Source: a virus (taxonomy: Duplodnaviria > Caudoviricetes). From it: a DNA stretch of 60,912 nucleotides. Under the pieces are notes generated by a model. It searched no databases. It was given only the letters and a program-made list of their open reading frames with translations, and was not told the origin of the DNA. A program made the translations under genes and the position numbers. Below, in pieces: positions 4,235 to 55,466 of this stretch (the stretch's first letter is position 1; each line of letters starts with the position of its first letter). The stretch covers positions 1 to 60,912 of the IMG/VR virus record IMGVR_UViG_3300038620_000113; one strand, 5' to 3'.

Positions 4235-4876
4235 TTATTTATTTTGTTTTTGTTTTTTAGTAGACTTTTTAGTTTTTTTAGAAGACTTACTAGACTTTTT
4301 AACTTGCTTTTTTGATTTATCTTTCTTTTCAGTTTCAATTTCATTTTGTACATTTAAATCACTTTCTTTTTGTTCATAACTTATCCAAGAAAAATTGTAA
4401 TCTTCTTCAAGTGAATTATATTCTTTAATACTGTCATCTGAATTTAACTTTCTAAACGAACTATTTTTACCTATTCTAGCATAATTTAATCTATTGTTTT
4501 TCCAAAGATATATCCACTTCACACGGGGGTGTTGCTTACTTATATATTGAATAAATTCTTTATCATCTGAACTTTCATAAACTTTGTAAGAACAAGATTC
4601 TGTTGATTCCTTTAAATCACGAATTTTGTAAATATTTGAATCAAAGTGATAAACTGGACTTTTCACGTGTAAACTTAATGTATGTTCAACGCCATGTGAA
4701 TTATTTAGTTGGAAAAGATCACCACAATTTAATAACTCGGAAATGTTAGATTTACTGTTCCAATAATATAACAAGCGTCTACCAGTATTCCATATATCAC
4801 CATCTGTTTCACAAAAAATGTAATATATCTTCCCCTTTTCAAGTTTTGCAATAATTGACTGTTCTTGAATTGGCAT
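4235..4876 (-). CDS. conserved phage hypothetical protein
   Basis: YIFCETDG..G..L..Y..LLNCGDL resembles the common phage IYCHWDGY-type family; Lys-rich tail. Confidence 0.45.
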   Translation of the reverse strand: MPIQEQSIIAKLEKGKIYYIFCETDGDIWNTGRRLLYYWNSKSNISELLNCGDLFQLNNSHGVEHTLSLHVKSPVYHFDSNIYKIRDLKESTESCSYKVYESSDDKEFIQYISKQHPRVKWIYLWKNNRLNYARIGKNSSFRKLNSDDSIKEYNSLEEDYNFSWISYEQKESDLNVQNEIETEKKDKSKKQVKKSSKSSKKTKKSTKKQKQNK

Positions 4877-4908
4877 AAAATTAGTTTTAATTAAATTGTA
4901 AATTATTA

Positions 4909-5643
4909 TTATTGAACTAGTTTGTAAAATCTTTTCAATCTTTCTTTAAAGTCAAGATACTTTTGTTCTAAGTCATTAGAATCAAGCTTGTATTGTTGAA
5001 CAGTATCATTTTTTTCATTTGCTATAACTATTAAAGCATAATCAACATTAATATCATACAAATTCATAACTGCTTTATAGTAAGCTGAAATTTGAAGTTT
5101 ATAATCTTCAACCCACTCTTCTTTTTTGGGTGCTCTTGCATTCTTCCAATCTAATAAAAGAGTTTTACCTTCAATATCCTCTACCATAAGATCAAATTTT
5201 CCAGCATACCCGTAAACATTACCATTTTTTTCTATTTTATTATAAACCGTTTTTTCACTCATTATATATCTTGAAATATCATTTTGTATGTTTGATGCCA
5301 TTACTTTATCAAAAAGTGATTTTGCAGATCTTGCTGCAACTGGCCGTTCAAATTCATCTAAATGATTTTTATTTAAGTACAACATAATTTCATTGAAGTC
5401 TTTAAAACCATTCTTAAAGAAGATTTCAAGCCAATCATGTAAATAAGTTCCTCTTTCAGTTGACTCCTTTAATATTTTATCTGCCTCCTTTTCGCCAACT
5501 CTTTCACGCCACCTTTTAATAAAAGTGTCATCTTTCGTAACACTAAGAATAGTTGTAACAGATGGAAGTTCAAATTCATCTGTACTATAAAATCGGACGG
5601 TATTACCGTCCGATAGTGTTCTTTTTACTGATCTTGGTTTCAT
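4909..5643 (-). CDS. PD-(D/E)xK exonuclease
   Basis: PSVTTIL, RGT.LH, YAGKFD, LLDWK, YKLQISAY. Confidence 0.85.
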   Translation of the reverse strand: MKPRSVKRTLSDGNTVRFYSTDEFELPSVTTILSVTKDDTFIKRWRERVGEKEADKILKESTERGTYLHDWLEIFFKNGFKDFNEIMLYLNKNHLDEFERPVAARSAKSLFDKVMASNIQNDISRYIMSEKTVYNKIEKNGNVYGYAGKFDLMVEDIEGKTLLLDWKNARAPKKEEWVEDYKLQISAYYKAVMNLYDINVDYALIVIANEKNDTVQQYKLDSNDLEQKYLDFKERLKRFYKLVQ

Positions 5644-29549: not shown

Positions 29550-30743
29550 ATGAAGATTAAGTCATTTTATGAATTTGTTAATGAAAGTTATAAATCGAGT
29601 GGTGAAAATCTTTCAGATTCTAAAGATTTCCAAAAAACACTTCCTAAAGAAATTAAGGATTTGGCTAATTTATTTGAAAAGCATGGTCATGAATTAATGG
29701 TAGTTGGTGGCGCGGTTCGCGATTTTCTTATGGGAAAAGAACCTAAGGATTATGATTTGGCTACTGATGCTAAACCCGATGAAATTGAAAACATACTTTC
29801 AAAACATTATAAAACGCTGGATGTTGGGAAACAGTTCGGTGTTATAGTTGCAGTTATTCCAAATTTTCCTGAAGGTGTTGAAATTGCTACTTATAGAGAA
29901 GATGTTTATTCAGATAATGATAAGGATTCCAGAAATCCGAGTTCCATAAAATATTCCACAATTGAAAAAGATGTTAGGCGTCGAGACTTAACACTAAATG
30001 CACTTTTTTATGATGTTGGTAAAAATCAATTTGTTGATTTAGTTGGTGGTAAAGAAGATATTGCTAATAAAGTAGTTGATACGGTTGGTAAAGCAGAAGA
30101 ACGATTTGAAGAAGATCCCCTACGAAAACTTCGTGCTATTCGGTTCACTGCAATAATGAAAGGCGATCTTAAAGATCATGTAAGTCGTGCTATTAAAAAG
30201 AACAACTTACTAACAGATGTTTCTAGGGAAAGAATTATAGAAGAATTTAGAAAAGGAATCGAAAAGTCAAAATCAACTGAATATTACTTGGAGCTTTTGG
30301 ATGAACATGGATTTTTAAGTCAGATATTTGTTGGTTATGAAACCAATAAAAACTTTATTGAATCTAATAAGTGGCGAATTGTTATGGCTGCTTTATTAAC
30401 TGATATAGATTCAGAACAACGTCTTAATATACTAAAAAAGATGAAACTTTCAAAACAAGATTTTAAGAGTATTGACTTATTAGCATCTTTAAAACATTTT
30501 GACCCCAAAGAAATTTATAGTTTCAAAAGAGCATTAGATAAAGTAAATGTTTCAAAATCTGAAGTTAACGAATTTGTAAAGAAGGTGGGTGGCAATAAAA
30601 ACATGATTATAAAAGCATTTGAATATGAATTGTCTATTGAACCTGAAAAGTTAATTCAAAAAGGTTATGAAAAACAAGAAATTGGTAAAAAACTAAAAGA
30701 ACTTGAATATCAAAACTTTTTGAAGTATTTAAAAAATAAATAA
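29550..30743 (+). CDS. cca: CCA-adding tRNA nucleotidyltransferase (class II) with head-targeting leader
   Basis: VGGAVRD, DYD, RRDLTLNAL, EDPLRKLRAIRF, SRERI. Confidence 0.9.
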   Translation: MKIKSFYEFVNESYKSSGENLSDSKDFQKTLPKEIKDLANLFEKHGHELMVVGGAVRDFLMGKEPKDYDLATDAKPDEIENILSKHYKTLDVGKQFGVIVAVIPNFPEGVEIATYREDVYSDNDKDSRNPSSIKYSTIEKDVRRRDLTLNALFYDVGKNQFVDLVGGKEDIANKVVDTVGKAEERFEEDPLRKLRAIRFTAIMKGDLKDHVSRAIKKNNLLTDVSRERIIEEFRKGIEKSKSTEYYLELLDEHGFLSQIFVGYETNKNFIESNKWRIVMAALLTDIDSEQRLNILKKMKLSKQDFKSIDLLASLKHFDPKEIYSFKRALDKVNVSKSEVNEFVKKVGGNKNMIIKAFEYELSIEPEKLIQKGYEKQEIGKKLKELEYQNFLKYLKNK

Positions 30744-34681: not shown

Positions 34682-35299
34682 ATGAACACCACTTTGTGTG
34701 GTTGTAATTTTTCAAACGAAAGTCCAAAAATTCTTTTTTTTATTGAGCAAGTAGATTATCAAACTGCAATGAAAATTGTAATTGATAATCACTATTTGCA
34801 CAGAAAGCCACCTTGTAGCAGAGCTTATGGAATTTTTTGTAATTCCTGTCAAAAGATATTAGGAGTAGTGGTGTATGGTGTTTCTTGCAGTAACACTTTA
34901 TTAAGAGGAATTTGTGGTGAAGATGAAGCAAACAGCGTTTATGAACTTACAAGACTATGGATAAAGGATGGAACACCAAGAAATACTGAAAGTTATCTTA
35001 TAGGAAATACATTAAAGTTACTTGATAAGGAAATAATAGTTTCGTTTTCCGAAATAGCACAGGGGCATATTGGAACAGTTTACCAAGCCACAAATTTTTT
35101 ATATTGTGGATTGAGTGCAAAATTCAGAGACCCAAAAGTTAAAGGACTTGAACACCAACACCATGCAACCTATGCTAGAAATATGACTATGAAGCAAGTC
35201 AAGGAAAAGTATGGAGAAGAAAACGTTTACTATGTAGATAGACCAAGAAAGCACCGATATATTTTTTTTAACGGAAAAAGGAACTTTTTAAAAAGTTAA
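34682..35299 (+). CDS. Mom-like adenine-modification (GNAT) enzyme, C-terminus disrupted
   Basis: HYLH, ELTRLW, HIGTVYQATNFLYCG, KHRY. Confidence 0.8.
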   Translation: MNTTLCGCNFSNESPKILFFIEQVDYQTAMKIVIDNHYLHRKPPCSRAYGIFCNSCQKILGVVVYGVSCSNTLLRGICGEDEANSVYELTRLWIKDGTPRNTESYLIGNTLKLLDKEIIVSFSEIAQGHIGTVYQATNFLYCGLSAKFRDPKVKGLEHQHHATYARNMTMKQVKEKYGEENVYYVDRPRKHRYIFFNGKRNFLKS

Positions 35300-35315: not shown

Positions 35316-36686
35316 GTTACAACAACAAATGAAATTCTTTGAATTTATTTTTGCTGTTTTTCGTGGCGAAAGGTACGGTAACAGCCTTTCCGGTCGATAT
35401 TCAATGCCGCATTATAATCGGCATTAGTTGAATATCCACAATCAATACATCTAAACCGCTCTTGAGAGGAACGATTTTCACGATGCAATGAACCACAATT
35501 AGAGCAAGTCTGACTAGTATAAGCCGGTGAAACCTTCATCAACTTGATACCAGTTTCACTACAAACTTGCTCTAGTTTCTTTATAGTTTTAGCGTAAGAC
35601 CAGTATTGAAGTTTGTTGTTAGTCTTTTTGCCTAACTTGGATTTATGCTTGACTTGTTTGAGGTCTTCGATAGAAAGCAATTCCACACCGTTTAGGTCTA
35701 ATTTTTGGTTAATACAATAATTGATTAAATTATCTCGTTGAATCAGTTTCCGCTTGTAAGCCTTAGAGCCGCGTTGTTTACGGGTGATTTGTTCATAGAG
35801 GCTATCAAATTCTTGACCTATTGATTGATTATCACTAGTCTGAATAAAGACCTTCTGACCTAAGTCAATTCCTATATGAGAACAATCGGGATTAGCCATT
35901 GGCTGCGGGGCATTCTTCTCCCAAAACAAGTTAATAAATGTCTTACCTGATTTTCTTTGTACTTGAATAGTATTTTTGAGTTGATACTGGCTATTGAGTA
36001 ACTGATTGGAATGACGGTGTTGTTTAAGTGGTAGATGAATGGTATAATAACGGTTTTTAGTATTGTAGTTGCGGTAGGGAGTGGTTATTTTAACGAAGTT
36101 ATCAAAATGATTTCCCCTTCTTATGTTACAAAGAGCACTCTCTAGGCTTAAATTAACATTATTCAAATTAGGCTTAGTAAAATATTTGCTTAAATGAACC
36201 GGCTTGAGATTGAGTTTTTTGAATCGCTTTTGTAAGAATGGATGATTGGGCTTATGTTTTATCAAGTAAGCATAAACCTTTTGATAGCGCTTATAACGGC
36301 GCTGGTTGGCTTTGGAACTTTGAGATCGAATGATTTCGGATGCCTGTTTATAGGCGGCTTTCCGATACTTAGAATGCTCAATGTTACAAACAATAGGTAA
36401 ATTAGAATTGCCTAGAGTGGCCCGCAAAGGCAATTGATTGGCTAGAATCAAATCTAAGTAATGATTAACACAACGAGTATAATCTTCCATTACTTGATTC
36501 AGGAACCTTAACTTACCTTGATTGGTTATCCGAGTAATGCTATGCCGTGAGGTTTTAATCAAAAGAAAAAATCTTTTTCCTACTTTATTTATTTAGTTGA
36601 ATAAAGAGAAATGATTGACTTAATTAATTTTCATTTCATTTCACTTTTTAGCAAAGAATTTCAAATTATAGTTTTTGCTGTTGTAA
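35316..36686 (-). mobile_element. non-autonomous IS607-like element carrying only tnpB
   Basis: bounded by CC cores (35314-15, 36687-88); GTTACAACA/TGTTGTAAC inverted ends; excision restores VLPYPKNQ*. Confidence 0.8.
35345..36562 (-). CDS. tnpB: RNA-guided endonuclease TnpB
   Basis: GIDLG, IEDL, PAYTSQTCSNC, CIDC, NADYNAALNI. Confidence 0.92.
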   Translation of the reverse strand: MIKTSRHSITRITNQGKLRFLNQVMEDYTRCVNHYLDLILANQLPLRATLGNSNLPIVCNIEHSKYRKAAYKQASEIIRSQSSKANQRRYKRYQKVYAYLIKHKPNHPFLQKRFKKLNLKPVHLSKYFTKPNLNNVNLSLESALCNIRRGNHFDNFVKITTPYRNYNTKNRYYTIHLPLKQHRHSNQLLNSQYQLKNTIQVQRKSGKTFINLFWEKNAPQPMANPDCSHIGIDLGQKVFIQTSDNQSIGQEFDSLYEQITRKQRGSKAYKRKLIQRDNLINYCINQKLDLNGVELLSIEDLKQVKHKSKLGKKTNNKLQYWSYAKTIKKLEQVCSETGIKLMKVSPAYTSQTCSNCGSLHRENRSSQERFRCIDCGYSTNADYNAALNIDRKGCYRTFRHEKQQK

Positions 36687-39114: not shown

Positions 39115-39369
39115 ATGATTATTCCTAGTTACGAAGAAGTGAAAAAGTATGTTCAAACTCAAGGTGAAGACTTTGAACCTGTAATGACAGACAATCCTTA
39201 TCTTAACTTTATGATGGAGGTTGCTATTCAGGAACTTTACTTTCCTGGTGAAGATGACAACTATACCTTGGAGGATTGGAGAAAAGAAGAAAGTGATTTT
39301 GTTCGAGAAGTAGAAGCAGTAGGTAAAGAAAATCTTTACCCTATGGAAGAAATTTTCCCTAACACTTGA
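39115..39369 (+). CDS. hypothetical acidic protein
   Basis: 84-aa ORF. Confidence 0.55.
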   Translation: MIIPSYEEVKKYVQTQGEDFEPVMTDNPYLNFMMEVAIQELYFPGEDDNYTLEDWRKEESDFVREVEAVGKENLYPMEEIFPNT

Positions 39370-39396
39370 CAATTGTTAAATATTACTTTACCTTAG
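39366..39396 (+). promoter_or_regulatory. early promoter ahead of tRNA-like RNA and array 1
   Basis: TTGACA-N17-TACCTTAG. Confidence 0.65.
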
Positions 39397-39417
39397 TGGT
39401 ATAATACAATGAAAAAG

Positions 39418-39499
39418 AGTTAAAAAAGAAGACTCTGGTGAGTGCTTATTCCGCACCCCGGGAATAAGTGGGGGTTCGATTCCTTCCCTTTTTTTAACT
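39418..39499 (+). ncRNA. tRNA-like RNA with non-canonical anticodon arm
   Basis: terminal A/T stem, ACTC-TGGT-GAGT D-like arm, 9-bp hairpin, GGGGG-TTCGATT-CCTTC T-arm. Confidence 0.6.
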
Positions 39500-39500
39500 T

Positions 39501-39660
39501 GATCAAGCCACTTCCTTACATTTAGCATTTGGACGGGGATATTTAGTGGCCATCTTATTTTTCATTGTTTATTAAAACTAGCCAAGAAACTTCCTTTATG
39601 CTAATTGGAATTTAGAAATAGTTTCCGCTAGTTGTTTATTTTTAGGTCAAAGAAGTTCCT
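39501..39660 (+). ncRNA. hairpin array 1 (A1 39501-39554, B1 39576-39633, truncated C1 from 39644)
   Basis: stem-CAA-stem-TTCCT-loop-TA-stem-C-stem units. Confidence 0.75.
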
Positions 39661-39679
39661 TTTTTAATTGATTATTGCT

Positions 39680-39814
39680 ATGCTTATTGCAGTTGGGGAC
39701 GTTCACGGCAAGTATAAAGAATTCACGCAGGCCTGTTCGCACTTGGAAAATCTTTACCTTTTTCAAGTGGGCGATTGGGGTGTAGGCTTCCGATGGTCAA
39801 AACCACCCTCTTAA
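39680..39814 (+). pseudogene. metallophosphoesterase N-terminal fragment (44 aa)
   Basis: VGDVHG...QVGDWGVGF then stop. Confidence 0.7.
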
Positions 39815-39894
39815 ATGAACTGGAGTTGGCGGTGAGCCGCTTTTGAATAGGCGAATCAGCCGCTATTTTTCTAATCCAAATTAAACTTTCAACT

Positions 39895-40080
39895 ATGAAT
39901 AATAAACCTTTCGATATTAACAAACAGATAGAAAGAGATCAAAAAGAACAAGAATTCTGGAATCAGGAACTTGAGAATGTGGAATACAAAAAAGACAAAG
40001 AACGTTTAGAAAAAGAAGAACAAGATGAAATTGAACAGCAGATGATAGAAGAACAAATGCTTGAAGAGGAAAGTGATTGA
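39895..40080 (+). CDS. small acidic coiled-coil protein
   Basis: E/Q-rich 61-aa ORF. Confidence 0.5.
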   Translation: MNNKPFDINKQIERDQKEQEFWNQELENVEYKKDKERLEKEEQDEIEQQMIEEQMLEEESD

Positions 40081-40220
40081 CTTAAAGGAAAACTATAATT
40101 TGAAAATGATTCTTTTGTACTTTTTCTATCCGTTAGGAAAAAGCATTACATTGAATAACAGTTAATTGATATTTTGTAACTTTTAATCTTCCTATTTCGT
40201 TAAGGGAGTAGGAGGAACAA

Positions 40221-40306
40221 GGAAAGGCAAGCAGATTGGCGACTGTTCCCGACTTGAAATCGGGCGAGGTTAACAGCCCTTGGGGGTTCGAATCCCTCCC
40301 TTTCCG
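40221..40306 (+). tRNA. tRNA-Ser(TGA), no CCA
   Basis: GGAAAGG/CCTTTCC, CCCGA-CTTGAAA-TCGGG, long variable arm. Confidence 0.88.
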
Positions 40307-40314
40307 CTAAACGC

Positions 40315-40501
40315 GAGATCAAACCACTTCCTTTATAAATTCGATAATCAGTTAATATAGTGGTCATCTCCGGAATTAGATTCTAGCCAAGAAACTTCCT
40401 CAAAACGCTTTAGAAGAGCAATTAGTTTAGTTTCCGCTGTTTAATTTTAAGGTCAAAGAAGTTCCTTATTTTTTTAAAAGCCGATTATTACTTCCCACCT
40501 T
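40315..40501 (+). ncRNA. hairpin array 2 (A2 40315-40370, B2 40384-40439, C2 40449-40501)
   Basis: three complete units with the same structure and different loops. Confidence 0.8.
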
Positions 40502-40516
40502 TAATTTTTATTAGCT

Positions 40517-42394
40517 ATGACTATCACACAAAACACCATTAACAAATCTTTAGAATACTTTAAGGTTCTGCCTGTAACTCAAGACGTACAAAATGTAAAT
40601 TCTAAAAGTGATTTTACACCACAAAAATTACACAATCTTTTGGCGAAAGGATTGGTTCCAACTTCTCGGGCATTACCTTACATTGATTGGATAAAAGATT
40701 ATGCTCTACAGTGTATTAGTGGAAATGACCTAAGCAAAACATTTTATCGGCGCTGGAATGATTTATTTTCCCGTTCGGAAGATGAACGCTTAGCCGATCA
40801 GTTATATCACTATCTTACCACCTATGGCGCTGAAAGTTTGGGTATTTACCGTCCTGAATTGGTATATCTTCCTGCTAACTTAGAAAAGAATACAAAAGAA
40901 GAAAACCAGCTACCCGTTCAGATAATTGACATAGAAGATCAAGAAAAAGTTATTGAACGGGCCTATAAAATGCTAGATTCGGGAATGCCGCTGGCTAGCC
41001 AAACCGTAAGTGATTTACTCGATATTCTCGATGGTTTGGGTTATAAATTTACAGAAAATAAATTAGCTAATAAGGAAGCACGAGCACGGATTGCTTCTGA
41101 AAAAGGAGTTTGGCCTGAAGAAGCAGATGATATTTTAAGAGTGTTAATTTATCAGGCTACAGGACGAACTCTAGTTATTAAAGATCGAGAAACTATATCG
41201 GCCTTAGAAAATTCTAATTACACCCTGCCCCAACTTTCTAATCAAGCGGAAAAGAAAATTGCTACCCACAATTTTAATCGTCATAAAAAATTGTTGGTAG
41301 CTTTTAAAAAAGCCCATTCGGATAATAAACCTATTATCAACCGAATAGCTCGAAAAAGCAAAAGCCTTCATCAACCCCAAAAGCAAAAAATCTTAGACAA
41401 TCTAACGAATGGAGATTATAGTTACGATGAGGTAACTCGAGCTATAATAAAAGAATCTACTTTTCGTGTTATTTCAGCCTTAAATGCTATTCGTGAAAGA
41501 TTAAAAGATCAAGAACATCCAGTTCGTATTTACAAAATACGCAATGGAAAAACATTTGCTAAAGAAGATTCTACTAATAATCGAGAAACTAGAAAGTATC
41601 AAATCTATGAAAGTATATTAATTAGTAATCTTTTGTTTCGTTTAAAAGATCAAAAGATTTACATTCCTTCTCATATTGATTATGCCCTTCCTAAATCGGA
41701 AAAAGATTTTGTGGGAGAAATTCCGGCGGGTAGTTCTTTTTCTCTCTCCGCTGACCAAGAAGGTTTATGTATCGGAGTCTATTGGCACGAAAAAAATAAT
41801 ATAGTAGATTTAGACCTCAGTGCCTTAACCAAAGATAGATGTAATAATTTTACCAAAGTAGGATGGAATAGTGATTGGGTTGATGATGATTTGGGGCTTT
41901 CTTTTTCGGGTGATATAACCCGAGCGCCCCAGGGTGCTTGTGAATATCTAACTTGGCAACCTGGGGTTGAATGGGAGGCTTTGGTTCTAACTAACCTTTT
42001 TGATGGAGAATTGAATTCATCTTACTATATATTAGGTGGTTACCCTCGCAACTTTAAGAGAGAGGGATTAATCCAAACCGAAAATCTCCAGTTTGCACTG
42101 CCAATGACCATGTCTAAAAAGCAAAAAATTACTGGATTGATTGTTCAAGATTCAGAAACGAGTAAATTTTATTTGTATGATGGTGATTTTGGTAACCTGC
42201 CAGTTTCTGATACTAACGGTAAAAGCATAAAAGCTATGAATGCTCTAAAACAAAAGCTAAAAAGCCAAATGACTCTTAGGGAATTACTACAAACTGGAAA
42301 AAATAACTTTTTAGTAGAAAGCCCTGAAGATGCTGATATCGATTTATCGCTGCAAAATCTAAATCAAGATGCTTTTTTAAATCTTTTTAATTAG
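40517..42394 (+). CDS. 625-aa conserved protein with TerD-like C-terminal domain; candidate RNA-binding partner of the arrays
   Basis: DQLYHYLTTYG; GVYW..VDLDLSAL..FSGDITRAPQGACEY. Confidence 0.6.
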   Translation: MTITQNTINKSLEYFKVLPVTQDVQNVNSKSDFTPQKLHNLLAKGLVPTSRALPYIDWIKDYALQCISGNDLSKTFYRRWNDLFSRSEDERLADQLYHYLTTYGAESLGIYRPELVYLPANLEKNTKEENQLPVQIIDIEDQEKVIERAYKMLDSGMPLASQTVSDLLDILDGLGYKFTENKLANKEARARIASEKGVWPEEADDILRVLIYQATGRTLVIKDRETISALENSNYTLPQLSNQAEKKIATHNFNRHKKLLVAFKKAHSDNKPIINRIARKSKSLHQPQKQKILDNLTNGDYSYDEVTRAIIKESTFRVISALNAIRERLKDQEHPVRIYKIRNGKTFAKEDSTNNRETRKYQIYESILISNLLFRLKDQKIYIPSHIDYALPKSEKDFVGEIPAGSSFSLSADQEGLCIGVYWHEKNNIVDLDLSALTKDRCNNFTKVGWNSDWVDDDLGLSFSGDITRAPQGACEYLTWQPGVEWEALVLTNLFDGELNSSYYILGGYPRNFKREGLIQTENLQFALPMTMSKKQKITGLIVQDSETSKFYLYDGDFGNLPVSDTNGKSIKAMNALKQKLKSQMTLRELLQTGKNNFLVESPEDADIDLSLQNLNQDAFLNLFN

Positions 42395-43001: not shown

Positions 43002-44087
43002 ATGTCCGCCACAAAAGTTAATTCAACTAGTAAAAAACGTATAATATTAAATAAAAAAGATTGGATTAAAGCCATCAAGAAAATAGATGGTTCTTGGCGG
43101 TATAGAAAACAACATAATTTATTCTGGCTAGACTGCCTAAAAAACAATAACTTAATTTTTTCTATTAATGTAAAAGCAACTTTTAAATCAGATTTTCAAG
43201 ACTTTATTACTAACTTTGAAAAATTAGAAAATATTCCAAAAGAAGTAGATTACTTAAACTTAAAAGATGGTTATATTTCAGAACACACAGAAAATATTTT
43301 AGAAAACAAAATAAGTTATAGAAAAATTGATAAACCTTACCAATATGATGGAAGTGTTTTTATAGATTCTAATGTTTTAGATAAAGTATACCCTTTCACA
43401 ACAATAGATAACACTCGTCCAGCTTGCCAAAACGTTTACTTTAGTGTAGATAATAATAAAGTTGTTGTGGGCGCTACAGATGGACAAAAGTTGCGTCTAA
43501 TAACAGAATATCAAAAAACACCAATAGACAATAAAACAAGTTTTATTATACCCAAAAAAGATATAAATAAAATAAGGGCTAAAGCAAAAGAAAAGATTTA
43601 TTTGTACTGGAATAGTAACTGCACTCCTTTAAATTGGTTAATTCAATCTTTCCCTTATCAATGGAGCAATATTTCCAGTAGTTATAAGTATCCCCCTATT
43701 GAATCTTTTACTAACATCAATCTTTCAACTTCTATAAAATTGAGTTCCAAAAAGTTAAAAGAAGCTTTACAGCTTTTGTTGCCTTACTTAGATTCTACTC
43801 TTTACTTAGTAGAACTAAAACTTTATAACAACAAGTTAGAAATGAGACCGGGGCTATATTCTAGACACACACACTTTTATTATTCTTCTTTTATTCCTAT
43901 ATTAGAAGTTGATACTTCTTTTAATGGAATTTCATTTAATGGAAAACATATTTTAGAACTTTTGAAAAAAGAAAATAACTTAGAACAAATAACTTTTTAT
44001 CTATCTAACAATAAAAAGCAAGTTTACACTACAACTTCATATTTTCAACAAGACCTAATAATATTTCAAAATTACTATGAACACTGA
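43002..44087 (+). CDS. DNA polymerase III beta-clamp-like protein (divergent)
   Basis: TRPACQNVYF, VGATDGQKLR, FIIPKK, ISFNGKHILELL. Confidence 0.65.
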   Translation: MSATKVNSTSKKRIILNKKDWIKAIKKIDGSWRYRKQHNLFWLDCLKNNNLIFSINVKATFKSDFQDFITNFEKLENIPKEVDYLNLKDGYISEHTENILENKISYRKIDKPYQYDGSVFIDSNVLDKVYPFTTIDNTRPACQNVYFSVDNNKVVVGATDGQKLRLITEYQKTPIDNKTSFIIPKKDINKIRAKAKEKIYLYWNSNCTPLNWLIQSFPYQWSNISSSYKYPPIESFTNINLSTSIKLSSKKLKEALQLLLPYLDSTLYLVELKLYNNKLEMRPGLYSRHTHFYYSSFIPILEVDTSFNGISFNGKHILELLKKENNLEQITFYLSNNKKQVYTTTSYFQQDLIIFQNYYEH

Positions 44088-44898
44088 AATCAACATACCA
44101 GAAGTAGAAAAAGAGATGCCTAGACTCATATTAACATCAGGCGGAGAAACAAGTGCTTTTCTTACTTATCAATTTTTATTAGCAGGGCTTAGAGAAAATG
44201 ATCATATAGTTTTTACGAATACTGGCTTTGAAGATCCCAAAACTTTAGAATTTTTGCATAAGCAAGAAGAATATTGGGGGTTACCACTACGCTGGCTTGA
44301 ATATGATCCAGAATGTGAAAACAGTTTTAGGGAAGTGGACTATCATACTGCATCGGTGAAAGGTGATCCTTTTAAGAAAATGATTGAAGAAAATGCCTAC
44401 CTTCCCAATCCTAAGCATCGAATCTGTACTCAAAAGTTAAAAGTTGAAACCGCTCAACGTTTCATGAAAAGTTTTGGTTATGATGAATGGCAGAAAGTTG
44501 TGGGCCTCCGTTCAGACGAACCCACTAGAAAATCTAAGTTAAGTAAGTTTGATACTGATTTAGAACAACTGGTTTTGCCGCTCTTTTATTCTAACGTTGA
44601 TAAAAGTTATATTGAATCGTTCTGGGAAAAACAAAACTTTCGTTTAGAAACCGATGAATTATTAAAGAATTGTAATCTTTGTTTCTTAAAAGGAAAAGGA
44701 AAAATACTAAGTATTATGTCGCAATATCCTGAAGTGGCAAACGAATGGATAGGGTTGGAAAATAAAGTAGGAAGAACTTTTAACAAAGATCATAGTTTAG
44801 AAAATTTGAAAATACTTGCTGAAAACATGCTTTTTCCAGGTGAAGATATATTTTCAACAGATCAACTGGATGTTGATTGTGTTTGTGGTGGAGATTAA
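44077..44898 (+). CDS. PAPS reductase family (PP-loop) protein
   Basis: SGGETS, NTGFE, RICTQKLK, GLRSDE, NCNLCFLKG, CVC. Confidence 0.8.
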   Translation: MNTEINIPEVEKEMPRLILTSGGETSAFLTYQFLLAGLRENDHIVFTNTGFEDPKTLEFLHKQEEYWGLPLRWLEYDPECENSFREVDYHTASVKGDPFKKMIEENAYLPNPKHRICTQKLKVETAQRFMKSFGYDEWQKVVGLRSDEPTRKSKLSKFDTDLEQLVLPLFYSNVDKSYIESFWEKQNFRLETDELLKNCNLCFLKGKGKILSIMSQYPEVANEWIGLENKVGRTFNKDHSLENLKILAENMLFPGEDIFSTDQLDVDCVCGGD

Positions 44899-54326: not shown

Positions 54327-55466
54327 ATGCTAAACATACAAAAGCTTATTCAAGAGAAAGGAATTGATGAAGCAACTAGTGAGTTGGGAGTTGAATATCG
54401 AGATTACGGGCACAAGATTATACTTGCCTATAATCAACTTGAATCGGACTTTGATAATCCAGCAACTCATGAGTGTCGTGGATTGGTTCTTGAAAAGGAA
54501 ACATTAAATGTGATGTCCTTTCCACTTTATAAATTTTTTAATGCTGGTGAAAAACATGCTGCTACTTTGGATTGGAGTAGTGTAAGTGTTTTGAAAAAGT
54601 ATGATGGAACAATGATTCATATTTACTATGATTGGATTATTGATGATTGGTGTGTAGCAACCACTCGAACTGCCAATGCTGAAGGTGCATCTACTAACTT
54701 TTCTTCTTTTGAAAGTCTTTTTAAGTACGCTCTTGAAAGGATGGGTCTCTCATGGAACAGCCTAAAAAATGAAAAGTTACAAAAAGGATATACCTATGTA
54801 TTTGAGCTTTGTACACCTTACAATATTATTGTAACACCGCACCCCACTTCACAAGTTTATCTTTTAACAATAAGAGATTTGTTTAACAATCAAGAACAAA
54901 ATCTTGAAATTGTTAGGCATGTAGCAGAAATAGATCTGGGAGTTTATCCTCCTGCTTCTTATGATTTGTTAAATCGTCAAGAAATTGAACAGGCAGCATC
55001 CAATCTTCCTTTTGATGATGAAGGATATGTAGTTGTTGACAAAAACTTTGACAGGGTAAAGATAAAAAATCCAGCCTATGTTGCCACTCATCATCTCACT
55101 ACTTCTCAGGCTGAATGGCGAATTATGGATATTGTTAAACAGGGAGAAGTTGAAGAATTCATTGCTTGTTTTCCTGAAAGGCAAAATGAAATTCGTAAAT
55201 TAGAAAACTATTACAATTGGCTAGTTGAAACTTTAGAACGGGTTTTAGAGGAAGTTTATCATACATCCGAATATGCTCAATGGATAGATAAACCCAGTCG
55301 CAAACCTTTAGCCCTTTGGCTTAAAGAACGCTTGAATCGCGAAGGTTTAATATCTTGGATGGGAATTATCTTTTCTATTTTAGACGGCAAAAACAGTAAA
55401 AGCATCAAGCAACAGGTTAGAGAACAGAACAGTCGGGATATTTACAAGTTCTTAAAATCTTTTTAA
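54327..55466 (+). CDS. RNA ligase (T4 Rnl1-like)
   Basis: ECRGLV, KFFN, KYDGT, FE, EGYVV, RVKIK. Confidence 0.9.
   Translation: MLNIQKLIQEKGIDEATSELGVEYRDYGHKIILAYNQLESDFDNPATHECRGLVLEKETLNVMSFPLYKFFNAGEKHAATLDWSSVSVLKKYDGTMIHIYYDWIIDDWCVATTRTANAEGASTNFSSFESLFKYALERMGLSWNSLKNEKLQKGYTYVFELCTPYNIIVTPHPTSQVYLLTIRDLFNNQEQNLEIVRHVAEIDLGVYPPASYDLLNRQEIEQAASNLPFDDEGYVVVDKNFDRVKIKNPAYVATHHLTTSQAEWRIMDIVKQGEVEEFIACFPERQNEIRKLENYYNWLVETLERVLEEVYHTSEYAQWIDKPSRKPLALWLKERLNREGLISWMGIIFSILDGKNSKSIKQQVREQNSRDIYKFLKSF

Follow-up and report, generated by a model that had tools for sequence, protein, structure and literature searches.

What are the short hairpins that stand in two arrays before the gene of a 625-aa protein (P0001) in a stretch of phage DNA, and what does this protein have to do with them? 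The stretch, called the window in the following, comprises all 60,912 nt under analysis and is a 60.9-kb piece of the viral record IMGVR_UViG_3300038620_000113 (Caudoviricetes); since the estimated completeness of the record is only ~23%, the source phage must be large. A preliminary description of this DNA had presented the hairpins as tRNA-led, structure-conserved RNAs with spacer-like loops, encoded in front of a TerD-like protein. The comparison of 160 homologous loci reported here supports the core of that idea, as far as sequences can: the RNA structure is conserved, and its partnership with the protein encoded downstream is specific. As to what the pair does, we assign a probability of about 60% to an RNA-repair or tRNA-conflict ribonucleoprotein (RNP), in which the RNAs would be expressed and bound by the protein, and which would be analogous, not homologous, to the Ro60/Y RNA particle.

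The elements concerned are the following, in their order along the window. R1 denotes the covariance model that we built from 107 units of the family, run on the window with its filters off; z denotes the single-sequence fold z-score.

39422-39494, plus strand: truncated tRNA-like remnant (long variable-arm hairpin and T-arm) before array 1; tRNA-Sec model 19.3 bits, E 0.8
39497-39558, plus strand: unit A1, with helix 1, CAA bulge, 6-bp helix 2, UCCU, 27-nt loop and C bulge; R1 20.9 bits, E 0.0016
39576-39633, plus strand: unit B1; R1 44.8 bits, z -2.86
39643-39660, plus strand: unit C1, 5′ half only (AGGT-CAA-AGAAG-TTCCT), a pattern match that aligns with C2; no unit fold
39680-39814, plus strand: 44-codon open reading frame (ORF) directly after C1, translated as MLIAVGDVHG...GDWG...
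40221-40307, plus strand: tRNA-Ser(UGA), called by ARAGORN (Rfam tRNA 33.5 bits), ending 8 nt before A2
40313-40372, plus strand: unit A2; R1 36.8 bits, z -2.03
40381-40442, plus strand: unit B2; R1 34.7 bits
40447-40503, plus strand: unit C2; R1 34.5 bits, its end 14 nt before the ATG at 40517
40517-42394, plus strand: gene (ORF) of the 625-aa protein P0001, with a helical N-terminal domain, a TerD-fold domain and a short helical tail

The six copies of the pattern CAA-N5-TTCCT on which the preliminary description was based start at 39504, 39583, 39648, 40320, 40388 and 40454, as it had said, and belong to five complete units and one truncated unit (C1) at 39497-40503, all on the plus strand. 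The pattern was found seven times on the plus strand of the window and twice on the minus strand, compared to one match on each strand when the sequence was read backwards as a control. RNAfold returned the described two-helix fold for five of the six units, C1 being without its 3′ half, and the loop lengths given previously (27, 23, 25, 27 and 22 nt) were correct. Some details of the anatomy had to be revised. Helix 2 has 6 bp rather than 5, the sixth pair being formed by the first T of TTCCT and the A in the closing TA. The CAA, taken for an internal-loop element, is indeed a 3-nt bulge, but its C is atypical, given that the first bulge base is A in at least 90% of the family. The loop of B1 contains a small CUAA/UUAG hairpin capped by a UUGGAAU loop.

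The two arrays represent a tandem segmental duplication of a tRNA T-arm followed by A, B and C. The scaffold halves of paralogous units are near-identical and the loops cannot be aligned, in agreement with the earlier view that scaffolds were kept while loops diverged. The remnant before array 1, a paralogue of the tRNA-Ser's 3′ part, aligns with the T-arm of this tRNA and was not called as a tRNA by ARAGORN. Of the tRNA or tRNA-like 3′ ends described next to the arrays, the one before A2 thus belongs to a real tRNA gene and the one before array 1 to just a truncated copy. In C1, the 3′ half is replaced by the beginning of the 44-codon ORF. This ORF has no Pfam match; its sequence, with GDVHG and GDWG, resembles the first two motifs of metallophosphoesterases. 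Array 1 may once have stood before a gene for such an enzyme, possibly an end-healing phosphatase, of which the ORF would be a leftover. A candidate promoter (TTGACA...TATAAT) before array 1 was rejected on account of its 28-nt spacer, and a promoter scan yielded 19 where 13.4 ± 4.2 would be expected by chance.

A search with P0001 as a single query found no viral relatives, and an alignment of homologues was needed. With 38 aligned members, we fetched 80 viral loci encoding homologues of 26-35% identity, while 80 bacterial loci were obtained from a scan of species-representative genomes. The latter were mostly from Bacteroidota and included many Chryseobacterium, along with Algibacter, Kordia, Tenacibaculum, Marivirga, Pedobacter, Saprospiraceae and other metagenome-assembled genomes. 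In the three viral loci that were read first, the same motif stood directly upstream of the homologue gene. A 14-base exact pattern from unit B was also tried as a locus finder; it yielded more than 116 unrelated matches in viral contigs (L009-L124), which were discarded.

Viewed across the family, a unit consists of a helix 1 of 4-7 bp, usually C-G-closed, a 3-nt 5′ bulge of the type A-N-A (C-A-A in the window), a 6-bp helix 2 ending in an invariant U-A pair, and a single bulged C on the 3′ strand. The distal loop begins with an invariant UCCU (usually UCCUAUA) and closes with an A/U-rich sequence and a U. The consensus of 107 units is nnnAGGCAAAGGnAGTTCCTATAAAA...TACTnCTCGCCT; U-UCCU, the U-A pair and the bulged C are invariant over these units, and the C-G pair closing helix 1, the two bulge A's and the G-C pair preceding U-A are nearly so. 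A strict pattern (N5-TTCCT followed after 8-129 nt by TA, the N5 complement and C, all within a flanking helix), run on the window and the 80 viral loci, gave 183 matches on the gene strand versus 2 on the opposite strand.

The preliminary description implied that the helices vary under a pairing constraint, and strong covariation was indeed seen in both of them. In an alignment of 107 distinct short-loop units, 91% of the cells were paired, 12 of 13 pairs changed on both sides, and the covariation score was 0.728, as opposed to 0.259 for shuffles (0 of 500 reached 0.728) and 0.12-0.19 for slid controls, a count that is partly circular, since the pairing of helix 2, and of all but one of the five inner pairs of helix 1, had been a criterion for choosing these units. 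For this reason R1 was built and applied to unseen sequences. Among 83 bacterial and cyanophage units outside the training set, 92.5% of the cells were paired and the covariation score was 0.663 versus 0.261, in an alignment that was fitted to R1 and hence leans toward the structure. G-U pairs were tolerated (for example, 33 at one helix-1 pair of this alignment). The training rows, mostly from other phages, include B1, A2 and B2 and exclude C2 and A1, both of which R1 recovered in the window; nothing beyond the five complete units was found there at E < 0.01, and C1 was not detected.

The units were assigned to no named RNA family, and none had been recognised in the preliminary description. 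At the gathering score, only tRNA and tmRNA of Rfam 15 passed in the window and 12 related loci, and at E ≤ 10 only noise was found over the units in window positions 39300-40600 and in positions 2560-2900 of the Chryseobacterium locus L269. The units thus appear to encode members of a large family of small structured RNAs that is absent from Rfam; they would be transcribed into stable RNAs.

The linkage between these putative RNAs and the protein gene was close to universal. R1 produced 203 matches in 74 of the 80 viral loci and 194 matches in all 80 bacterial loci, where every match was upstream; overall, the motif adjoins homologues, at no more than 27-35% identity, in 154 of 160 loci, and the 397 matches are without exception on the gene strand. 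Four of the six unmatched viral loci have less than 130 nt of upstream sequence. When five whole bacterial genomes (4.4-6.3 Mb) were scanned, scoring the best 150 first-look candidates in each, only 2-3 R1 matches per genome were obtained, all of them at the locus. The motif is also present in two cultured cyanophages, with four units upstream and one downstream of g174 in S-CRM01, and with one unit upstream of gp22 and another among tRNAs 2.5 kb away in S-CBWM1. Two features annotated as 'tRNA-pseudo' downstream of gp22 are without the motif. The hypothetical ORF g173c of S-CRM01 (L205 4716-4862, minus strand) overlaps three of the units upstream of g174 and is probably not a gene.

These figures make it hardly credible that the units are DNA-level repeats, such as REP- or MITE-like elements, terminators or promoters, devoid of any RNA function. 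Units are, to be sure, short, tandem, hairpin-forming and intergenic, and a TnpB-like gene lies 3 kb upstream of the arrays in the window. However, elements of that kind would not be expected on one strand in 397 of 397 cases, nor beside one gene family only, at 2-3 copies per 4-6 Mb genome; in addition, the tolerance for G-U pairs, the absence of a U-tract and the variable spacing within the loop all speak against it.

The arrays consist of one to five units, on the gene strand and directly beside the gene, mostly upstream, an arrangement that could also denote a cis-regulatory leader. In such a case, the hairpins would be operators in the 5′ untranslated region through which the protein, or a damage signal, controls the translation or stability of its own mRNA, and no free small RNAs would be made. 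The position of the last unit, mostly 10-25 nt before the start codon, is as one would expect for a leader (14 nt in the window; 17 nt in the Chryseobacterium locus L269, where the array comes after the terminator-like hairpin of the upstream gene), and so is the constant strand. Nonetheless, we regard this explanation as unlikely. In at least 10 viral loci, as in S-CRM01, there are also units that directly follow the gene, the distant S-CBWM1 unit stands 2.5 kb upstream among tRNAs, and array 1 of the window precedes a gene remnant. Furthermore, some units carry tRNA-like domains or reside in tRNA-like genes with their own ends, neither of which a translational operator needs. A leader role of the upstream arrays would in any case be compatible with an RNP.

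Unlike the scaffold, the distal loop varies greatly. We counted 311 distinct units, 165 viral (including those of the window and of the two cultured cyanophages) and 146 bacterial, with loops of ≤30 nt in 252, 31-60 nt in 45 and >60 nt in 14. In the short loops, A-U-A follows UCCU in most copies, and TGG is present in 63 of 252, where 1,000 shuffles gave 11 on average and never more than 21. Middle-sized loops add stable hairpins capped by UUCG or GAAA. The long loops contain permuted tRNA-like domains in the order T arm, loop-closed acceptor-like stem, D arm, the anticodon-like stem of which opens into the scaffold; their acceptor stems are closed by tetraloops or long hairpins and are without CCA. 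A T-loop-like motif was recognized in 24 of the 311 units, and in one viral locus (L164) a whole tRNA sits inside the unit loop. On these grounds, the distal loops look like variable modules rather than spacers.

This picture is at odds with the proposal that the loops act like spacers, that is, as guides or decoys that pair with nucleic-acid targets, and a guide-RNA array of this kind seems very improbable. The observation that led to it, the complete divergence of loops between paralogous window units with conserved scaffolds, is real, but the loops share family-wide sub-motifs (the UCCU-AUA start and the excess of TGG) and structured modules (stable hairpins and tRNA-like domains). No stretch of more than 13 nt from the loops of the window recurs in the rest of it; in bacteria, the same 2-3 units are retained by a chromosomal gene, with no sign of acquisition; and no cas-like or Argonaute-like genes are found nearby. 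The preliminary description was right in setting the arrays apart from CRISPR: unit stems differ in sequence, no CRISPR repeat family matched at threshold, and the only cas-related match is the TnpB-like ORF, which is on the other strand and 3 kb away.

A rearranged form of the motif was found in 14 tRNA-like genes beside the protein gene, in which an insert of 32-53 nt replaces the anticodon loop. The insert is a circularly permuted unit, comprising TA, the 3′ strand of helix 2, C, a loop-closed helix 1, A-N-A, the 5′ strand of helix 2 and UUCCU. In 10 of the 14 genes, GGA directly precedes the 3′ anticodon-stem strand and, by eye, can pair with the UCC of the motif. ARAGORN reads one of these genes (L148 939-1053) as a UAA suppressor with anticodon UUA, and likewise one register of another (L138 3681-3794); this reading probably reflects the insert and not a real suppressor.

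The inserts suggest a further possibility, namely that the motif is an excision or splicing signal: the protein would remove motif-marked inserts from tRNA precursors, leaders and permuted tRNA-like transcripts, and RtcB or Rnl-type ligases would rejoin the ends. Several of the 14 genes have normal acceptor ends and CCA. By eye, 12 of 13 have a U two bases beyond the 5′ strand of the anticodon stem, and all 14 have purine-A immediately ahead of the 3′ strand; if those bases were joined, a 7-nt loop would result. RtcB, a known tRNA-splicing ligase, is moreover adjacent in 46 loci. If true, this pathway of phages and Bacteroidota would be the first protein-based tRNA splicing outside archaea and eukaryotes, and would perhaps hide phage tRNAs from host anticodon nucleases until maturation. 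We nevertheless judge it quite unlikely. The putative anticodon differs between the near-identical genes of L130 (AGG) and L159 (AUG) while the adjacent GGA is kept, and the pairing of GGA with the motif UCC in 10 of 14 looks structural rather than anticodon-related; these two observations led us to downgrade the genes as true intron-containing tRNAs. The closed acceptor stems without CCA, seen in the units with permuted domains, correspond to the architecture of the YrlA mimic. Besides, 252 of the 311 units are stand-alone hairpins without exons, and the protein has no recognisable nuclease fold.

The resemblance to the bulge-helix-bulge (BHB) introns and permuted tRNA genes of archaea and eukaryotes is likewise partial. 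A bulged helix in the anticodon loop, circular permutations and a nearby RtcB are common to both; however, the present motif sets a 3-nt bulge against a 1-nt bulge at one junction, with a 6-bp helix after it, whereas the BHB has two opposite 3-nt bulges and a 4-bp helix. Neither a splicing endonuclease homologue nor conserved anticodons were found, in contrast to BHB and permuted tRNA systems.

The protein partner belongs to a large family without a Pfam model. The family comprises 1,261 representatives of 50%-identity clusters at E ≤ 0.001 (731 at E ≤ 1e-30), its members being ~600 aa long; 269 matches were obtained among the candidates scored, and 38 members were aligned. P0001 itself matched no Pfam family at E ≤ 0.01 and no PHROG family, and the family profile found no solved structure by sequence. 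The AlphaFold model of P0001 (pLDDT 84.9, pTM 0.85) shows a helical part from residue 1 to ~400 and a second domain at residues 409-577 (nt 41741-42247), which matched TerD structures (2qz7_B, Z 8.8, rmsd 3.6 over 146 residues; 2kxt, Z 8.6; Foldseek probability 1.00, with TM by target of 0.52-0.58). According to the model, the C-terminal domain has a TerD beta-sandwich fold, in keeping with the TerD likeness noticed previously. The TerD profile PF02342 and the TROVE profile PF05731 matched none of the 38 members at E ≤ 0.05. Two motifs, DLDLS and SGD, are nearly invariant in the family and presumably correspond to the Ca-binding sites of TerD. Beyond the fold of residues 409-577, there is little in common with TerD proteins and Ter clusters: the domain is fused to a 400-residue helical domain, the context is one of RNA repair and tRNA rather than membrane stress, and no Ter genes were found near the protein gene.

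When folded alone, the N-terminal domain gave a pLDDT of 84.1, and its best VIA-align match (Z 6.8 over 69 residues) was to ribosomal protein uL29-like helical hairpins. The invariant residues of the family are rich in Arg, Lys, Asn and His, a composition that would suit nucleic-acid binding and that by itself shows nothing. Full-length structural relatives were found in phages (Campylobacter virus IBB35, Lactobacillus phage LpeD and an uncultured siphovirus). The MXAN_6230/SCO0854 RING-domain proteins of Actinomycetota (~990 aa) align over 595 residues with a TM of 0.73 by query, and NCBIfam NF041916 matched P0001 at 23.8 bits (E 1.2e-5) over residues 301-478 only, below its 600-bit cut-off. 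As modelled, P0001 is a distant relative of the MXAN_6230/SCO0854 family, without the RING part. Chains of the botulinum neurotoxin complex, the top Foldseek PDB rows for the whole model, were dismissed (TM 0.09-0.12, rmsd >29), and a PADLOC match to pPIWI_RE_Z (E 0.009) was set aside as weak.

We also carried out a neighbour census, in which the ORFs of 163 loci were clustered and one representative per cluster was annotated. In the viral loci, tRNA or tmRNA genes were the recurrent neighbours: 38 of 80 have at least one within ~4 kb, and the 245 that were counted in total all share the strand of the gene. The protein gene of S-CRM01 and that of S-CBWM1 are inside the tRNA cluster. Five tRNA genes were predicted by ARAGORN close to the arrays of the window. 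Contrary to what had been supposed, being tRNA-led is not a defining feature, given that more than half of the viral loci lack such a gene within this distance and that, in the Chryseobacterium locus studied closely, the array is preceded by RtcB and a terminator-like hairpin. On two phage contigs, a tmRNA gene stands directly downstream of the gene for the TerD-fold protein (L148 3530-3806, Rfam 52.2 bits; L137 ~5654, ARAGORN).

Genes for RNA repair adjoin the pair in many loci. RtcB was adjacent in 46 of 163 (45 bacterial loci and the viral locus L165), upstream in Chryseobacterium and downstream in Algibacter. WYL/WCX regulators adjoin the pair in 36 loci; RlaP nucleotidyltransferases do so in 12 and 7, four viral ones among them, and Rnl1-type ligases in 5 (Kordia, Tenacibaculum and the viral locus L182). 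A T4-type polynucleotide kinase-phosphatase stands beside the Kordia ligase and a Pnkp-type ligase was found in Marivirga (one annotated locus each). In the literature, RlaP is described as a repair nucleotidyltransferase acting on cleaved tRNA, and a link between RlaP and RNA ligases in jumbo phages is also described. In our opinion, the recurrence of different ligase systems in different genera is a stronger signal than the RtcB count.

In Chryseobacterium sp. KCF3-3, the gene order is a divergent WYL regulator, a HopJ-family gene, RtcB, a terminator-like hairpin, three units and the protein gene. The HopJ-family gene (PF08888) was found between the WYL regulator and RtcB in 41 loci (L222-L286, e.g., L269 702-1037, minus strand). 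In Marivirga lumbricoides (L270), DUF5677 genes at 1475-2521 and 4674-5360 flank the array and the protein gene; they stand between two RlaP genes and the Pnkp-type ligase, and DUF5677 could be one more component of the repair cluster.

Our preference for an RNP rests on the exclusive, strand-specific and near-universal linkage, the conserved bulges and UCCU, the pairing-constrained variation of the helices, the tRNA-like modules, and the repair and tRNA-cluster contexts. In the mechanism that we envisage, the protein would bind the conserved scaffold (the bulges and UCCU), thereby forming the particle, and the variable distal module (a short A/U-rich loop, often with UGG, or else a hairpin of some stability, an elbow domain like that of tRNA or an entire tRNA body) would present tRNA-like surfaces. 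Such surfaces could either tether the particle to tRNA-handling or repair enzymes or divert tRNA-cutting nucleases, a decoy role being possible for the units. The pair would work with RNA ligase repair cassettes in bacteria and with the phage's own tRNA cluster in phages.

Several observations, in addition to the selection bias of the two alignments, weigh against this preference. Two viral loci with full flanks (L141 and L147) have no unit within 4 kb, and the usual array-to-start-codon gap of 10-25 nt would also fit a cis-acting leader. The folding energies of the window units are ordinary (z of -0.75, -2.86, +0.72, -2.03, -1.26 and -0.52, only two of the six below -2), and none of the five window loops contains a tRNA-like domain. 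About 40 of the 46 RtcB loci are from Chryseobacterium, implying few independent events, and RtcB is nearby in just 1 of 80 viral loci. The N-terminal domain matched no known RNA-binding fold and had no Foldseek match at E ≤ 0.001. No RNA sequencing runs containing window DNA were listed, all four runs being DNA (tidal-flat metagenomes, one of which may be where this DNA comes from). Lastly, TROVE/Ro60 genes exist elsewhere in two of the five genomes that carry the hairpin-protein pair, which also means that the pair is not a simple replacement of Ro60.

[quoted passage not shown] Based on those parts, the common features are one or more small structured RNAs encoded beside the gene of a 500-600-aa protein on the same strand, a conserved bulged stem (the presumed protein site) joined to a variable module, and RtcB or other RNA-repair genes as neighbours, here also in phages. 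Some of our units share with YrlA the T arm, the closed acceptor stem and the D arm, with the anticodon stem running into the binding stem. Both tethering and decoy roles have been proposed for the tRNA-like domain of Y RNA.

The differences are substantial. The protein is without TROVE domain, with a TerD fold where Ro60 has its vWA domain; neither Foldseek nor VIA-align listed Ro60 chains for the whole model or the N-terminal domain, a missing match being compatible with a Ro60-like fold (a ring of HEAT-like repeats plus vWA domain). The units are without the Rsr-binding motif GNCGAAN0-1G that bacterial Y RNAs have near the 5′ end (Chen et al. 2014), having instead UCCU and the A-N-A/C internal loop, and the Rfam Y RNA models did not match them. 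Unlike Y RNAs, the units form tandem arrays of up to five, most have no tRNA-like part, and permuted copies occur in tRNA-like genes. A tRNA-like domain in at least one RNA per locus was not observed (24 of 311 units, none in the window), while the adjoining RNA-repair genes were. Membership of the Ro60/Y RNA system thus fails by all molecular criteria that could be assessed, and we consider the pair an analogue.

A broader scheme put forward by Burroughs and Aravind in 2016 is said to treat Rot/TROVE proteins with Y RNAs, and SPFH/Band-7 proteins with a tRNA-like RNA, as scaffold cofactors of RNA-repair systems. The scheme reportedly features a non-enzymatic protein and its cognate noncoding RNA beside interchangeable ligases (RtcB, ATP-grasp), RlaP and end-healing enzymes, which is also the situation here; no Band-7 gene was present among the annotated neighbours. 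A literature search whose coverage did not extend to that survey or to supplementary files came upon neither the motif nor the protein family, and as far as it reached, both are undescribed.

To our knowledge, no bacterial scaffold protein with tRNA-mimicking RNAs of its own in RNA-repair operons has been well studied other than Ro60 with its Y RNAs, and even there the function is not clear. A further pair of the kind, assembled from unrelated parts, would, if true, make this design a recurrent solution. The present pair occurs in T4-like cyanophages and jumbo phages as well as in many Bacteroidota (~1,260 protein clusters at 50% identity), and cultured Chryseobacterium, as well as S-CRM01 and S-CBWM1 on their Synechococcus hosts, would offer tractable models for the role of such a particle in tRNA damage or in the phage-host conflict over tRNA. 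The motif also provides a new RNA family for annotation and a first functional context for a large protein family without Pfam model, and accounts for some of the 'intron-containing' or odd tRNA calls in phage tRNA clusters.

Apart from the array region, the window encodes a ribonucleotide reductase, DNA methyltransferases, a Mom-family protein, and two enzymes of RNA metabolism that we list as context only:

54327-55466, plus strand: Rnl1-family RNA ligase gene (PF09511, E 7.8e-18), 12 kb downstream of the 625-aa gene
29550-30743, plus strand: gene of a nucleotidyltransferase resembling CCA-adding enzymes (PF01743, E 2.4e-33; also PF12627)

A DNA search of the phage collection with the window found no close relative and only tRNA-Ser similarity. 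The TnpB-like transposon nuclease ORF mentioned above (405 aa, 35345-36562, minus strand) has a Cas12f1-like TNB domain (PF07282, E 6.4e-21). A PAPS-reductase-like gene (phrog_424) is located at 44077-44898 and the Mom-family gene at 34682-35299, both on the plus strand; together with the several DNA methyltransferases, their presence suggests extensive DNA modification by this phage.

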